Shown here in pieces: positions 3,001 to 9,000 of a stretch of DNA of 64,000 bases. The position numbers were made by a program. Location of the stretch: assembly GCF_055900595.2 (NCBI RefSeq), contig NZ_CM148325.1, one strand, 5' to 3'. The stretch's first letter is position 1. Each line of letters opens with the position of its first letter.

Positions 3001-6000
3001 GGGCAGGTTTCATTCGCCATGTGGAGTTCCAGCACGGCATCAGCATTTTTCGCCAGCGTGGAATTTCCATTATTGGTAATGGCGATAATTCGGTTGCCGA
3101 AATTTTTCAGTGAAGGAACTAGCTTGAGGATTTCATCCGTTTCACCGCTGGCAGAAATAAGGATCAGAAGATCGTAAGGCGTAATCATGCCCAGATCGCC
3201 ATGGAAAGCTTCTGCAGGATGAATAAAGAAACTAGGCGTACCCGTAGAGGCCAGCGTCGCTGACATTTTACGACCGACATGCCCTGATTTACCCATTCCC
3301 GAAAGAATAACGTGCCCTTTACAGTTCATTATCAAATTAAGGACACGCTGGTACTGCCCGGAATCCAGTTGTTTAGACAAGTTTTGTAATGCTGCGCTTT
3401 GTTCTGCCAGAGTCTGGCGAACAGAGGTAATTAGATATGGATCGATAGTACTGCTCTGGTCATCAGGTAAATGTCTTTCAGACATATCAGCTCCTTTGCA
3501 CGGAAATAATGCCACAGTCACAACAAACCCGAACCCACTATAATTTATTTATGCTAAATCAATGGGTTGTAACAAAATTTTTAATGAATATAAAACCATG
3601 GTCAGTCCATGCTTATATGCAGGACTTATCACCTTCTTATTAAGTCGCAATGTCTCATGGAGGTGCGAAGACGCTGCAATATTACAGGCGAGAAAGGGAA
3701 CCAAATTTTGCCCACCTATTTAACACACTCCTACATTATGAACAAGGAATTTAGGATTTTTATCATTTGTTAAAATGTTTCCTACTTGACTATTAATACC
3801 AAAAACAATTTATCAATTGATTATTTTCTTGTAAAAAAAGAACGTATGACTATGTTATTAATAAATAAAACACGCAAATAATGGTGATGTTGTTTTGTGA
3901 TTAATTATTTAAATTCGGCATAATAAACAGGTTGATAATTTCTACGTAAAGAAGAGGAAAGTAATAAAATTTTAGCGGTGACTATTGAATGATATAATAG
4001 TTGTAGTGTTGATTATTTCTGGTAATGAATGCGGAATTAAATCTGGCCGGATTGTATTTTTGCTATATCTATTTTTCAGGAGATTATTATTAAATAGAAA
4101 AATAACAATGGTGATTATCTCCGGTTGAGCTGGAGTCACGTATGCCAGCGAGTGCTTTCTTCCGGGCCTTCCTTCACTTCAGAGAAAGAGCCTATGGAAA
4201 AGAGGCAATCATCAGGCTCTTTTTGAGTCATATGCGCCGATAATCAACTGTCTTGAACGTAAAAATTATGGAGCAACATGATGCTACGATTCATTTCACT
4301 CTTCGTTCTTTCTGAGCATTGCGTTCAGGATGGTCAGCAATTTACGCATACAGTCAACCAGCGCCACTTTTTTGGTTTTTCCGGCTGCTGGCAGATGCAT
4401 GTAAAACGCCTCTTTCACCGGATTAAACCAGGTTACCACAAGCGCTGCCATGTGCAGGGCTGCTCTTGCCTCCGTACGCGCACTGGCGTCGTTCGGCCAG
4501 CAGATATGTGTGGGATAACAGGGATGTTATGTGAACTGAACTGTGTTTTGTTAGCGGGGGATGTTTATTGATGATTCGGGAGTGTTTAAGACCTGATGGC
4601 GTTATGCACCCAAGTTTATTTTATATAAAGATCCAAAAGCAAAAACCCGCCTTGTGGGCGGGTTCTTAAGAATTAGTGGTGCCCGGAATCGGAATGAAAC
4701 TGATTGTATAACAAATTGTTTTATATAGATTATTTTGTATTTGTTGTTTTTGAGGCCACCAATGAGGCCCCCATGTGCAATTCGAATTCTTTTGACGCTA
4801 TAATCCCTCTTTTTTGTGCTTTGCTGTAATCATTTGGTCTGGTTCGATATGCTGAATTGTGGAATCGTACTTAACGCGTTTGTTAGCTGGTCAGAACACT
4901 TAGCGCTGTTTGTCTGAAACTGGAATAGGCTTCTTCCCAGTTAATCTGTGTATTACCAAATACCATCGGTTTAACAAATCGTTGAAAGCGCAATTTGTGT
5001 ACAGGATAATCCCGGAGTGCATCCAGCCCTTTCTTAAGTTCATCAACTGGTGAGCTACAAAATTGTGGGTACTGGTTACCATAGCTGAATACATATCTGA
5101 ACAAAATTTTTCAATACAGGAACATTCACACCTTTTTCCCTGACAATGCAGTAGTTGTCGTAAATGTGACGTACCAGAAACTCATCATCCTGTTGTTCGG
5201 GATTACGAAGATGTGCTGCTGTTCTTCGCATCATGGAGATGAGCTTTTCAGCCTGAGTGGATAAAATGGTGGCACAGGGGAATGCTGTTACAGGTGTACC
5301 TTTACCCGTTAACTCCGTGACAAGGGAATAAATATCTCTGCTTTCCGGATGTTCCAGCAGAGTGCTTTCCATCAACTCCAGCTTAATAAATGGACGAAGA
5401 CAGGGGACTTGTGCAAATGTCTGGGGATAACGTACCGAGATTTCGTTATAACGATACTCATCACGTGTTATACGGGCGTTTTCATTATCCAAGCTGAAAA
5501 TGTCAGAATTATGAATAACATCCGTGATTATTTGCACGATTTCCTTGCGAATTTTTCTTCTCTTGTCTCTGCCATTTTGCATAAAGTTCTCTGTTGGCAC
5601 GAGCTTTATATCAATATCTTCTGACATTCTGTTTAGCGAGATACCTGCTTTTGATAATGCGGTACCTCCTGCAAACACGAGAGTATGTGTTTCTGGTTTT
5701 ATTTCTTTTAATAATCTTAAAAGATCAACCACAAAATAATCTTTTTCGACGATAGCGACAGATTCAATATCCAGTGCATCGGCAACGTCAGGAAATAATG
5801 ATGTTAATTCAGGCATTGATTTTACTTTTCCCTACTATTAACATTCTTTTAAATCGAGAAGGTGTTTTTATCCCCAGAGATACAGGAATTTGTGTGGACT
5901 GACCTTTATTGTAGCATTCCGTTGCTCCTGCCAGACGGTATCTGATATTCAGGCGCTCCAGGGCCTCTGTAATTACTGCAGCAGAGCCCCCAGGCGCTGC

Positions 6001-9000
6001 GGGCATGATTTTCCCAGTGATGATGTTACGACGGGCTTTGGTGTAAACACCATAGCCCACTTTCATCAACTTACCTTCGTTTACCAGTGTACGAAGAGCT
6101 CTGCCAACCTGATCATAGCCAGCGATATCCCTGAAATCATCCCGGGTGAACACATAACGTTTTGAACGGTTCAGTCGGGACTGAATACGGTCTTTTGTAG
6201 TCATGTTTCCTCCGAAAAATTTTCACAATGATAGCAAAAATATGACATGTTTAATAGCGGGGCAAGGCCACATTACCTGTCTGCTAATACATTTGGATAG
6301 TGCCTGGCAATTATGTCATTTAGCCTGTCAACCAGTTCTGGTTTCCTGAACGTGATGTGTGCGGAGCCCTTCTTAAAGTATCTGATGCTGAACATCTCAT
6401 CTTCATAGCACGCTTTGCCCTGAACGGAGCGGATGTGATCATCCAGCCGAATGATGATATTTTCCCGGCTGTCGGGGATCGGTTTGCCGCTGAACAGATG
6501 CAGCATTCTTTCCAGGTCAGCGAGTCGATCTGCCTGTTGCCCGGTGATAAGATGCAATCCCCATCGGTCCCATCTCACCAGATTGTTGACGATAATTTTA
6601 TTGCCAAATTTACAGGGGCAATTGGTTTTGTAATTCCAGCTCAGACCTCTGAAGAGGTTGATCACACCTCGCTCAAACACGTCATCCTTATTCTGGTGCA
6701 GTTGTTCAAACGTACTCAGGATATTCGCCTCGCTGATTTCCGGAAAGTTATCGTACTCCAGTGAGCGGTACCATGTATCATGGGCCTGCGCATCCATTAA
6801 TGACAGCATCCCGGAACGTTGCATCAGGTCACGCCAGATTTCGCGATCGAGATTGCGGGTGATGGCTTTCATTGCGGTTTCCGGTTTCTCCATGAGCCTG
6901 CAGCCGCAGCGAAAATCCTGTTTCATGGCCCAGTCCCGGGCGGTTTTACCGCCAATGCTTTCCGTCAGTACCGAGATTTCAGCCAGTTGCCGGATAAGTG
7001 TGTCGATTTGCAGCAGCGCACTCTTTCGTACAGCCAGAATGTGGCGGATACTAGTTGAGCAGATAACGTCCGTATGTCCGTTGACCAGTTCCGGGCGGGA
7101 GATTGTGATATCTGACATCATCGTTTTTCCTTTTGGTTTATAAACGAAAACGCCAGCCGTATTCAGGCTGGCGTCAGTGGAATAAAGTCTGGTGAGTAAG
7201 ACTCACCTGTTCTGTTGCAGAAGCTGCAGTTGGCGCAGGGTACGGATATCTTCCCTGGCCTGTTCAATGCAGGGCAGCAGTGCTGCTGAATCCGTTTTAT
7301 CCTCATCGTTGTCGAAGATAATCCCTGATTCGCAGTCAATATTGTCCTGCAGCCACGCAATCAGAATATCCAGCGCTGTTTCCGTGGTTAATGATTTCAT
7401 GTTGTGAATTTCCGGGTTACCAGTCGAAAGTGGGTAAATCCGGCAGGCATTCAGCGCTGGCATCCAGATGAATGAGACTGACGCCATAACGTCGGGTAAG
7501 TGTGACAACCAGACGGCGGAACGTTTTTGACAGCCCCAGGCGTTTAAGCCGCAGAACCGGGTATGACCACGCATCGGTACGTAACAGATATCCGCTACCT
7601 GTAAAATGAATCCATTCTGATTCGCCGGTGTCATTCGTCTGATGCGACAGCGAGTACAGCCAGGCGTTGTCTGTTTCCGTGATATGCGCGGTACTACAGC
7701 GTATACCGCTCAGGGCAGCAGAGGGGGGTATGCTGTCTGTTGAGGTCCGGTCAGATTCATCAACAACACGAAGGGAGTAGCCATTATCGCAGACCACGTT
7801 AATCAGTTCGGCAAGCTCAACACCATCGACGTCAACGACAATTCGCCCCATGTTCAGTGCCTGTACGTTAACGCTGTCAGCTTCCAGCGTCAGGGCCAGT
7901 TTCATCGTTTTGCCTCCGGATGCTTGCCCTGGGTAATGTTATTTACCATTCTGTAATTGTTCCGGGTCATCAGGCCGGTCGCCCTGCGAGCCCGGAGAAT
8001 ATCAATGCTGTTGATTAACTGCGACGGGGCTCCTGCGCTGAATCCCGGCTGGTCGGTACGTACCAGCGCGTATTTTTCAACGAGAAAGTTCACCGCGTCA
8101 CACAGTGAAATCCCTGCCTCAATATGCTGCTCAATCACACGTTCATCAGCGAACGGTGTGTCATTCAGCGTGAGGCCATAGTGCTGGTCCAGCAGTCGGG
8201 TGAGCAGTGTCTGCCAGATGGTGACGGGAGACGGGCAGCGCGATGCCGCCCGTACGTGTGTGTCGGGTAATGTTTTCATACTGAAGATTTTCCTGATATG
8301 CAGATATAAGAAATGGAAAAGTGGCGTGGAGAAAGCACCAGGCCGGAGCAGAAGACTATTCCGGAGGGTTACTTTCCGTTTCGGTCGCAGGATAAACAGC
8401 CAGATAAACGTAACCACAGGACCCGAGGGTGTCGGCATCGCAGGTCAGCCCTTTCGCATACAGCGTGACGGTATGCTGATGGCGGGGATTCAGTTCACCG
8501 CTGGTGAGCATGAGTTCCAGTTGTTTCATCAGCAGTGGAAAAGCCTGGTCCAGATGGTATGCATCCGCATTGCTGAACCGGCCCCTGATACCGGCGCGGT
8601 CTGCAAGGTAATGCAACCGGTTACCCTCCTGCAACAGACGGGCGCCGAAACAGGGCGTCACGGTGCAGGGCAGCCCCCACCAGGGGCGGTCTTTGTTGTC
8701 GTCGGGAAGCGTTGTTCCGGGGAGTGTGTCCGACATGATAAAATCCTCACAGAAAATCGGTGAATGATAGTTTAACGATGACGGGTCAGCCGGCGCGCAG
8801 ATCGGCTTCGGTGAAGGTATATTCGTTGATGAGAAGGGCCTCATCCACAGCGGTGTCTGAGGTCAGCCAGTCGTACTTGTTTTCCAGCTGGCGGTACAGC
8901 CAGAAGGCCAGGTCGCGCAGGGCTTCGCTGACAGCGGCTTCCGCATCGGTTGTCATTGCCTGACCAGTCGGACTGTTCCGGGTGACGGTGATATCCATGC

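Follow-up and report, generated by a model that had tools for sequence, protein, structure and literature searches.

The gene pair studied here lies in a window of 64,000 nucleotides (contig NZ_CM148325.1, assembly GCF_055900595.2) and is a known kind of system, a two-gene AbiE phage-defence/toxin-antitoxin module. Its toxin gene abiEii carries a 14-bp deletion, and we consider the locus to be a decayed AbiE module with a dead toxin and a retained, intact AbiEi, at a probability of roughly 85%. The break is real and ordinary, it belongs to an already annotated pseudogene, and the same or a similar break was found in almost every sequenced E. coli with the module. The frameshifted state of the gene is already recorded in the RefSeq annotation, and a published study has dealt with the locus (PMC12488582).

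Composition of the abiEi-abiEii pair

The features of the locus are compiled in Table 1. The coordinates of the three ORFs, all on the minus strand, were exactly those given in the initial annotation, which had also described an AbiEi-like winged helix-turn-helix gene overlapping an AbiEii-like gene by 8 nt. Profile matches and the overlap (ATGCCTGA, 5809-5816) agreed with this description.

Table 1. Features of the abiEi-abiEii locus and its flanks
Feature	Position	Strand	Remarks
Terminator-like hairpin and T-run	4640..4668	-	strong; 12-bp stem followed by TTTTTGCTTTT; just past the pheV repeat
Direct repeat of tRNA-Phe (pheV) 3' end	4677..4695	-	18/19 compared to pheV of strain SK1144; distal island boundary
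abiEii pseudogene	4883..5816	-	934 bp, compared to 948 bp (315 aa) for an intact gene
Displaced 3' part of abiEii	4883..5085	-	native residues 250-315, out of frame
73-aa ORF	4883..5104	-	contains the displaced abiEii 3' part
5' part of abiEii	5076..5816	-	246-aa ORF: 244 native residues, then Leu-Trp-stop
Deletion junction	5085..5086	-	14 nt ACAGGATATTGAAC (coding strand) absent; alignment with intact alleles
A4T5 run	5103..5111		not the lesion site; identical in 7/7 aligned alleles
abiEi	5809..6204	-	intact ORF, 131 aa; short AbiEi, Pfam DUF6088; RefSeq WP_000208382.1
Extended -10-like element	6228-6236	-	TGCTATCAT; overlaps the proximal repeat; putative promoter
Operator-like repeat, proximal	6233..6247	-	TGTCATATTTTTGCT, 13/15 to consensus TGTCGTATGTTTGCT; cross-genus upstream alignment, motif search
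Operator-like repeat, distal	6256..6270	-	degenerate, 7/15 matches

AbiEi matched the PADLOC model PDLC02229 over positions 1-130 of 131 (E=2.9e-52) and, in Pfam, DUF6088 (E=1e-8) and AbiEi_4 (E=1.4e-4). The protein consists of a winged helix at the N-terminus and a small C-terminal part; in the AF2 model (pLDDT 89.9) the helices and strands of residues 3-59 followed a typical winged-helix pattern.

In the AbiEii domain test on the toxin, the PADLOC AbiEii profile matched with E=5.3e-97. The 246-aa ORF was recognized by Pfam PF08843 (AbiEii, DUF1814; E=4.8e-27, model positions 1-176 of 238) and covered positions 1-237 of 307 of the PADLOC AbiEii model PDLC02297; the 73-aa ORF matched positions 243-306 of the same model (E=4.8e-18). 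Since the two pieces cover successive parts of the AbiEii profile, they represent a single gene split in two, and the 73-aa ORF is, as proposed earlier, the displaced C-terminus of the toxin. Restoring the 14 nt yielded one ORF of 315 aa matching Pfam AbiEii over positions 1-236 of 238 (E=1.5e-29). A search of NCBIfam returned no family for AbiEi, the repaired AbiEii or the neighbouring DUF4942 protein.

The lesion in abiEii

An uninterrupted toxin ORF was absent: the reading frame closes after 246 codons, leaving the final 66 native codons in another frame. The lost 14 nt encode Q245, D246, I247, E248 and a part of R249. RefSeq already labels an identical abiEii sequence as frameshifted.

The initial annotation had recognized the frameshift correctly but placed the change of frame at the A4T5 run. 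The junction lies at 5086/5085, and the run was unchanged across intact, 13-bp-deleted and 14-bp-deleted alleles in an alignment of seven alleles. Two explanations had been offered for the break, inactivation of the toxin with retention of its partner, which our data support, and slippage or a sequencing artefact at the run, which they exclude. The deleted 13 or 14 nt are non-repetitive, with a microhomology of 0-1 nt as judged by eye. The lesion is no artefact, because 456 independent complete genomes share this non-repeat 14-bp deletion down to the junction. Although the run and the overlap of the two ORFs are no more than a few bases apart, its invariance in all aligned alleles, the intact ones included, together with this recurrence leaves a sequencing or assembly error, or a toxin made phase-variable by reversible slippage, with a negligible probability.

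A contingency gene was rejected on the same grounds, as no variation in repeat-tract length was seen and the alleles differ by a 13- or 14-nt non-repetitive deletion. An imperfect pair of 8-mers (TATTCAAC/TATTGAAC), 12 nt apart, was considered as a deletion hotspot and rejected too, since it predicts a loss of 12 nt and not of 13 or 14.

Programmed ribosomal frameshifting, by which the two ORFs would be joined into a full-length toxin, would fit the 29 nt they share (5076-5104), a geometry of recoded genes, but is hardly credible given that the orthologues are single continuous ORFs, that the 14 nt for conserved residues including D246 are physically absent and that the 13-bp and 14-bp alleles would require shifts in opposite directions.

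Distribution of abiEii alleles in E. coli

Alleles were typed in complete E. coli genomes by means of junction-specific probes, which gave 647 typed copies. The 14-bp deletion with the identical junction was present in 456 genomes, and another 142 had lost 13 bp at this site, so that 598 of the 647 copies carried an out-of-frame deletion. The 13-bp allele results in a fusion ORF of 305 aa with an out-of-frame C-terminal tail, the 14-bp allele in 246 aa. In the remaining 49 genomes the junction was intact, and 47 of these had the stop W298*, which leaves 297 aa. The full ORF of 315 aa (WP_057697651.1) was found at two loci only, on plasmid A of strain C5 and in strain PapRG-04-4.

The deletion and W298* represent at least two independent lesions, all of them within the last 23% of the gene, and every lesion seen (13-bp deletion, 14-bp deletion, W298*) leaves the N-terminal three quarters untouched. 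Additionally, abiEi was intact in every locus inspected.

Conservation and predicted structure of the lost segment

Homologues of the toxin from about a dozen other Enterobacterales genera were 312-331 aa in length with a coverage of 99-100%. All 90 aligned homologues reached query position 312 or beyond and none ended near residue 246. The initial annotation would have been contradicted by full-length homologues ending where the 246-aa ORF ends and by a 73-aa ORF dissimilar to the family; instead, homologues of 315-320 aa cross the junction and the 73-aa ORF resembles AbiEii C-termini.

With a mean identity to the query of 0.30 for residues 245-315 compared to 0.35 for the rest, both parts were about equally conserved. 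D246 was kept in 94% of the aligned homologues (n=90), and the C-terminal part had a dN/dS of 0.12 in the original frame when compared with the intact haplotype. Within the family, purifying selection therefore acts on the C-terminal part of AbiEii.

The nucleotidyltransferase motifs I-IV were defined previously as hG[GS], R..[ST].DhD, K......RR and a basic residue followed by ..D (PMC3985639). All four, as well as Ser65, the putative phosphoacceptor, are retained in the 246-aa ORF. Eleven residues were invariant in 91 homologues (K25, D26, G50, R63, S65, E66, D69, K191, R216, H217 and D220), all of which lie within this ORF; G51, D67, R197 and R198, conserved to at least 90% in the same homologues, are present there as well.

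The AF2 model of the repaired AbiEii (pLDDT 95.9) predicted a compact fold, the two-lobed fold of DUF1814 nucleotidyltransferases, matching MenT4, MenT3 and JHP933. Residues 232-314 form five helices in this model. According to it, the 246-aa product would break off halfway through helix 232-250 and would be without the four subsequent helices.

Upstream region of abiEi

Two operator-like repeats precede abiEi. The distal one was well preserved in Yersinia, Salmonella, Pantoea, Dickeya and a metagenome locus and partly in Photorhabdus; it was degenerate in both E. coli haplotypes. A scan for the sigma-70 consensus upstream of abiEi found no promoter, and no inverted repeat was found in this region. 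A motif search for more copies of the AbiEi operator-like sequence, for example near kpsF, gave none above chance.

Genomic context and relatives of the module

The pair had been placed just inside an island boundary repeat, which holds, and the repeat turned out to be a copy of the pheV 3' end, located 188 nt beyond the end of abiEii. The neighbouring hairpin is probably the native pheV terminator. No tRNA was found in a search of the window; the pheV gene and an integrase were found only in strain SK1144, which was identical to the window over 4700-6400. Further on, the window and SK1144 were not collinear, and therefore the island size of ~ 75 kb holds for SK1144 only.

A 131-aa partner and a toxin of ~ 316 aa with the same 8-nt overlap were present in Dickeya, Yersinia, Salmonella, Pantoea and Photorhabdus, and these five genera carry the module in unrelated contexts. 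Furthermore, a pair with 47% identity was present in a metagenome. In other Enterobacterales, toxin homologues of 315-320 aa always occurred with the 131-aa partner, and AbiEi homologues were uniformly 131 aa long. The abiEi-abiEii module is thus an autonomous unit.

The published locus of strain CFT073

The CFT073 genes c3681-c3682, reported as an AbiEi/AbiEii TA system (PMC12488582), represent the same locus, situated between DUF4942 and kpsF in the pheV island. McGarry et al. 2025 found it in 502 genomes, mostly of ST131 and ST73 (PMC12488582). CFT073 carries the 13-bp deletion with the out-of-frame fusion ORF of 305 aa and differs in this from the window with its 14-bp deletion; the 1,306 bp given in the paper correspond to 396 + 918 - 8. 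The text on the CFT073 AbiE contains no mention of a frameshift, a truncation or a pseudogene (PMC12488582).

When the pair alone was deleted from CFT073, no tested phage plated higher at 20 C, and the titres on the single mutant were similar to those on the wild type or below them (Bas 06, Bas 32). Phage susceptibility was changed in the double mutant, in which pair and capsule were deleted (PMC12488582). The phenotypes of the double mutant hint at a domesticated remnant, a reading that is considered below.

Proposed state of the module and alternative explanations

In our reading, the pair is the terminal cargo of a CP4-type module, located distally on the pheV pathogenicity island in extraintestinal E. 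coli. By analogy with related toxins, an intact AbiEii would be a DUF1814 nucleotidyltransferase adding nucleotides to tRNA 3' ends and halting translation. AbiEi of an intact system would repress the operon and neutralise the toxin, according to the newest work possibly by inducing its auto-phosphorylation at residue 65. The 14-bp deletion, by removing codons 245-249, among them that of the nearly invariant Asp246, and by shifting the frame, would have abolished toxin activity. The retained AbiEi would then at most repress its own promoter, where one of two ancestral putative operator repeats survives. We would not expect addiction or abortive-infection activity from such a pair.

Against a dead toxin stands the retention of the catalytic motifs and of Ser65 as well as the existence of smaller DUF1814 toxins such as JHP933, with 232 residues in the solved chain; we take MenT1 to be another one. 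On sequence alone, residual activity of the 246-aa product may be possible. The C-terminally truncated AbiEii could thus have kept a reduced nucleotidyltransferase activity, and the pair could still work weakly in defence or as a toxin-antitoxin system, which we regard as improbable. Motifs I-IV with Ser65, the confinement of at least two independent lesions to the last 23% of the gene, the intact abiEi of all inspected loci and the phage phenotypes of the CFT073 double mutant (PMC12488582) speak for it. However, the deletion takes D246, conserved to 94%, and disrupts five helices in a fold that is compact and predicted with confidence; purifying selection acts on the C-terminal part within the family, and the 90 aligned full-length homologues all continue well past residue 246. 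No common product has been preserved either, because the tails of the 13-bp (305 aa) and 14-bp (246 aa) alleles differ. The CFT073 single deletion mutant plated phages as the wild type or lower, and since a cassette upstream of kps replaces the pair in the published mutant, polar effects are possible.

Equally doubtful is a domesticated remnant instead of neutral decay, a reading built on the restriction of the lesions to the C-terminus and on the universally intact abiEi. Here the truncated AbiEii and/or the orphan AbiEi could have been retained for a remaining effect on phage susceptibility or on the expression of the adjacent group 2 capsule.

For the decayed module that we favour, the locus by itself amounts to a routine pseudogene within a genomic island that is decaying, and the value of the observation lies in a correction. 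In ST131, ST73 and other extraintestinal E. coli, this capsule-linked locus is taken for a conserved and functional AbiE system, both by defence-system finders and in one published study. Since 598 of the 647 copies are deleted, 47 stopped and 2 full-length, phenotypes credited to the 'TA system' need to be re-tested. The two intact alleles represent a natural positive control.

Comparison with known systems

The AbiE systems of S. agalactiae and of the Lactococcus lactis plasmid pNP40 likewise consist of two overlapping genes with the antitoxin/regulator first (PMC3985639; bioRxiv 10.64898/2026.01.19.700257). Their toxin is also a DUF1814/PF08843 nucleotidyltransferase, and the motif numbering is nearly equal (G50/G51, R63, S65 compared to T65, D67, D69). 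The nucleotidyltransferase motifs and the autoregulation of AbiE were described by Dy et al. 2014 (PMC3985639), auto-phosphorylation of the S. agalactiae toxin at T65 more recently (bioRxiv 10.64898/2026.01.19.700257). In contrast to these systems the toxin ORF is broken here, and the partner is a DUF6088 protein of 131 aa instead of one of 196 aa with a COG5340 C-terminal domain. A Foldseek search with AbiEi returned no significant match; S. agalactiae AbiEi (6y8q_A), ranked seventh, showed a weak fold similarity (TM 0.43, E=0.11). The upstream repeats are tandem direct repeats, whereas those of S. agalactiae are the inverted repeats IR1 and IR2.

The best structural match of the repaired toxin was MenT4 of M. 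tuberculosis (Rv2826c, 6y56; E=3e-7, TM 0.63/0.67, full length), and MenT3/TglT of the same species (Rv1045; 6y5u, 6j7*) was also among the best. By sequence profile MenT4 6y56 was the only significant match in the PDB, though a weak one (E=0.0036), and a PDB search with the single sequence gave no match. MenT toxins are DUF1814 enzymes acting on the 3' ends of tRNA, which they modify, and phosphorylation induced by the antitoxin controls them (PMC11375011). Identity of MenT4 and MenT3 to the repaired toxin is only 13-17%, and their antitoxins resemble AbiEi neither in length nor in domain content.

[quoted passage not shown] These modules were functional by transposon sequencing, and expression of the toxin AbiE-T2 altered tRNA levels (PMC7725324). 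In contrast to the locus described here with its broken toxin gene, the Serratia systems have intact toxins and essential antitoxin genes.

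Composition of the abiE locus

The three ORFs described in the initial annotation were all recovered on the minus strand, the first two overlapping by 8 nt (ATGCCTGA). The 131-aa protein matched the PADLOC AbiEi profile PDLC02229 end to end (residues 1-130 on positions 1-128 of 131, E=2.9e-52), besides Pfam DUF6088 (E=1e-8) and AbiEi_4 (E=1.4e-4). Since AbiEi homologues are uniformly 131 aa long, this partner is full length for its subfamily. The 246-aa ORF matched Pfam AbiEii PF08843 (E=4.8e-27) only from model position 1 to 176 of 238. On the PADLOC AbiEii profile PDLC02297 it covered positions 1-237 of 307 and the 73-aa ORF positions 243-306 (E=4.8e-18), so that the latter clearly resembles a toxin C-terminus; about five profile positions are missing in between. 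As both ORFs cover complementary stretches of the profile, they are two halves of one toxin gene.

Features of the abiE locus and of the surrounding island
Feature	Position	Strand	Remarks
Terminator-like hairpin	4640-4668	minus	strong; 12-bp stem and T-run; next after tRNA-Phe copy
tRNA-Phe 3'-end copy	4677-4695		18/19; downstream of pseudogene
abiEii pseudogene, whole	4883-5816	minus	RefSeq 'AbiEii/AbiGii toxin family protein, frameshifted' (identical strain SK1144)
abiEii, displaced 3' part	4883-5085	minus	contained in 73-aa ORF (4883-5104)
abiEii, 5' part	5076-5816	minus	246-aa ORF
A4T5 run	5103-5111		same in 7/7 aligned alleles, intact ones included
abiEi	5809-6204	minus	131-aa ORF
Repeat, proximal copy	6233-6247	minus	13/15 match
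Repeat, distal copy	6256-6270	minus	7/15 match
1,299-aa ORF	54649-58548	minus	in place of iucD and iucC of SK1144

A 14-nt deletion in abiEii

The stretch from position 4700 to 6400 matched strain SK1144 of E. coli at 100% identity. Alignment with alleles from other complete genomes revealed that 14 nt, ACAGGATATTGAAC on the coding strand, are missing between positions 5086 and 5085. When they are put back, a single ORF of 315 aa results which covers Pfam AbiEii positions 1-236 of 238, in line with the proposal that the pieces together have about the length of AbiEii. The deleted stretch is non-repetitive, with microhomology of at most 1 nt at its ends. The A4T5 run, at which the frame change had been placed, was rejected as its cause because it does not vary between intact and broken alleles. 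The initial annotation was thus right about the broken toxin gene but wrong about the position of the break. Together, the deletion and the intact abiEi support the reading of an AbiE pair whose toxin is inactivated and whose partner is retained.

Importance of the lost C-terminus

AbiEii homologues from Dickeya, Pectobacterium, Brenneria, Xenorhabdus, Photorhabdus, Yersinia, Serratia, Pantoea, Salmonella, Klebsiella and Enterobacter did not end with the 246-aa ORF; they were 312-331 aa long (almost all 315-320) and covered 99-100% of the repaired protein. More distant representatives were likewise full length. In an alignment of 91 sequences (23-93% identity), drawn from those of at least 300 aa and therefore partly selected for length, 90 of 90 homologues reached query position 312 or beyond. 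Both parts were about equally conserved, with a mean identity to the query of 0.30 for residues 245-315 versus 0.35 for residues 1-244. Between the window and the intact haplotype, dN/dS was 0.11 for abiEi, 0.10 for the N-terminal part of the toxin and 0.12 for its C-terminal part in the original frame, and this last value argues that the displaced part was coding until recently.

The AlphaFold2 model of the repaired AbiEii was very confident (pLDDT 95.9, pTM 0.92). Its best solved fold match was MenT4 (6y56, TM 0.63/0.67, full length), further ones being MenT3/TglT and JHP933. The main rival reading is that the truncated protein still has some activity, since NTase motifs I-IV (Dy et al. 2014) and the invariant residues K25, D26, G50, R63, S65, E66, D69, K191, R216, H217 and D220 all lie in the retained part. 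However, the deleted 14 nt include the codon of Asp246, which is 94% conserved, and the truncation cuts the modelled helix 232-250 and removes the four following ones (255-259, 261-274, 277-289 and 298-314). We consider such residual activity improbable and favor an inactivated toxin.

Distribution of abiEii alleles

Junction probes of 40-45 nt, centred on each junction type, were applied to 5,426 complete E. coli genomes; they cannot cross-match other alleles because no 28-nt word is common to them. The 14-bp deletion junction was present in 456 genomes, a 13-bp deletion at the same site in 142 and the undeleted junction in 49, which together make up 647 of the 652 genomes holding at least 80% of the region. 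Numbers of this kind in complete genomes exclude slippage or a sequencing artefact, the alternative initially offered.

Among the 49 undeleted copies, 47 carried the nonsense change W298* (TGG>TAG; 297-aa product), and the TAG list includes all 28 undeleted records listed save the two intact ones. The full 948-bp gene was found at only two loci, on plasmid A of strain C5 and on the chromosome of strain PapRG-04-4, both encoding WP_057697651.1 and both on a more diverged haplotype. The W298* alleles show a handful of differences to the window, about 5 in HM670 and 8 in strain 5392. The 13-bp and 14-bp alleles are otherwise nearly identical; deletion aside, OX030728 differed once, in abiEi, and AVS0285 twice in total over 1.43 kb each. 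These alignments indicate that the gene was probably inactivated independently at least twice, by the deletion and by the nonsense change, with a secondary 1-nt change presumably linking the 13-bp and 14-bp forms.

For the 13-bp allele gene callers give a 305-aa out-of-frame fusion (P0007); this product is common in protein databases, where it bears the name AbiEii. Two further junction variants, P0046 (304 aa) and P0051 (299 aa), show additional small deletions near the 14-bp site; they stem from read-archive and metagenome assemblies and reflect either continued decay or errors of assembly. The W298* allele of ST131 strain 5392 (L003) also carries two adjacent substitutions at abiEii codons 50-51 (GGAGGT>GGTAGT), turning Gly-Gly of motif I into Gly-Ser; HM670, also W298*, retained Gly-Gly. 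Some homologues have Ser at the second Gly position (Dy et al. 2014, PMC3985639).

The published CFT073 locus

The same locus of CFT073 (c3681-c3682) has been classed among type IV AbiEi/AbiEii systems, with linkage to group 2 capsule genes, and reported in 502 genomes, 64% of them ST131 and 10% ST73 (McGarry et al. 2025, PMC12488582). Phage phenotypes were given for mutants; at 20 °C the single deletion mutant showed approximately wild-type plating for most phages and lower plating for Bas 06 and Bas 32 (PMC12488582). CFT073 carries the 13-bp junction, in contrast to the 14-bp deletion of the window, and is flagged 'frameshifted' in RefSeq. The published 1,306 bp correspond to 396 + 918 - 8 nt, i.e. 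abiEi plus the 305-aa fusion ORF. The terms frameshift, truncation and pseudogene do not occur in the text of PMC12488582. The lesion is a caveat for published functional claims on this locus. Novelty is low, since systems of this type are known, RefSeq already annotates the pseudogene and the locus has been published; new here are the exact lesion and the census with less than 1% full-length copies.

Upstream repeats and island context

Comparison of six loci upstream of abiEi (L009, L010, L014, L015, L016 and L017) revealed a tandem direct repeat, two copies of TGTCGTATGTTTGCT with a 23-24 nt period. It was kept across genera whose proteins are just 47-68% identical and whose flanking DNA has diverged, and is probably the AbiEi operator. 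In both E. coli haplotypes, the intact and the broken one, the proximal copy alone survives. Synonymous divergence between the window and the intact C5/PapRG haplotype (alignment A2) was approximately 0.38 in abiEi versus 0.09-0.16 in abiEii, a difference that points to recombination with a breakpoint close to the overlap of the two genes and to an operon of mosaic origin.

Beyond the tRNA-Phe copy follow the hairpin, an IS110 remnant and kpsF, and the hairpin is probably the terminator native to pheV. For the pair to be co-transcribed with the capsule genes, as stated in PMC12488582, transcription would have to read through this hairpin, which is sited between the abiE remnant and kpsF. No tRNA was found within the 64-kb window; in SK1144 the pheV gene and its integrase are located about 75 kb further on. 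The window is not collinear with SK1144 throughout, and the 1,299-aa ORF at the place of iucD and iucC indicates that the island layout differs beyond the first part. Going by the SK1144 annotation, this ORF is probably the Sat autotransporter. In other E. coli (L018, strain AR_0089) a ParD/ParE pair replaces AbiE between DUF4942 and the island end (slot 4700-6270), with flanks of about 92% identity. Because ParDE occupies the same slot, the end of the CP4-type module appears to behave as an exchangeable toxin-antitoxin slot.

Comparison with related systems

A 131-aa DUF6088 gene and an AbiEii gene of about 316 aa, with the same 8-nt overlap, recur in very different neighbourhoods. The Dickeya pair adjoins a type I restriction system, that of Yersinia ruckeri follows a DUF4942 remnant and precedes an integrase, and that of Salmonella belongs to a CbeA/CbtA-DUF4942 module as in the window. 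The pairs of Pantoea and Photorhabdus are found in unrelated chromosomal contexts, and one on a metagenome contig is 47% identical. The AbiEi/AbiEii pair is an autonomous unit.

DUF1814 enzymes of the AbiEii type bind nucleotides, and their toxicity depends on motifs I-IV (PMC3985639). MenT homologues block aminoacylation by attaching nucleotides to the 3'-CCA ends of tRNA, and tRNA levels are perturbed by AbiE-T2 of Serratia (PMC7725324). Antitoxin-induced auto-phosphorylation was described for T39 of MenT1, S78 of MenT3 and T65 of S. agalactiae AbiEii, each an active-site Ser/Thr (PMC11375011; bioRxiv 10.64898/2026.01.19.700257). By analogy with this literature, an intact AbiEii would add nucleotides to tRNA 3'-ends and undergo auto-phosphorylation induced by AbiEi. 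The invariant Ser65 shares its number and context (R63-x-S65-E-D67-x-D69) with T65 of S. agalactiae AbiEii and is the putative phosphoacceptor. Upstream of the operon both systems differ, as inverted repeats were described for S. agalactiae AbiE whereas tandem direct repeats are present here.
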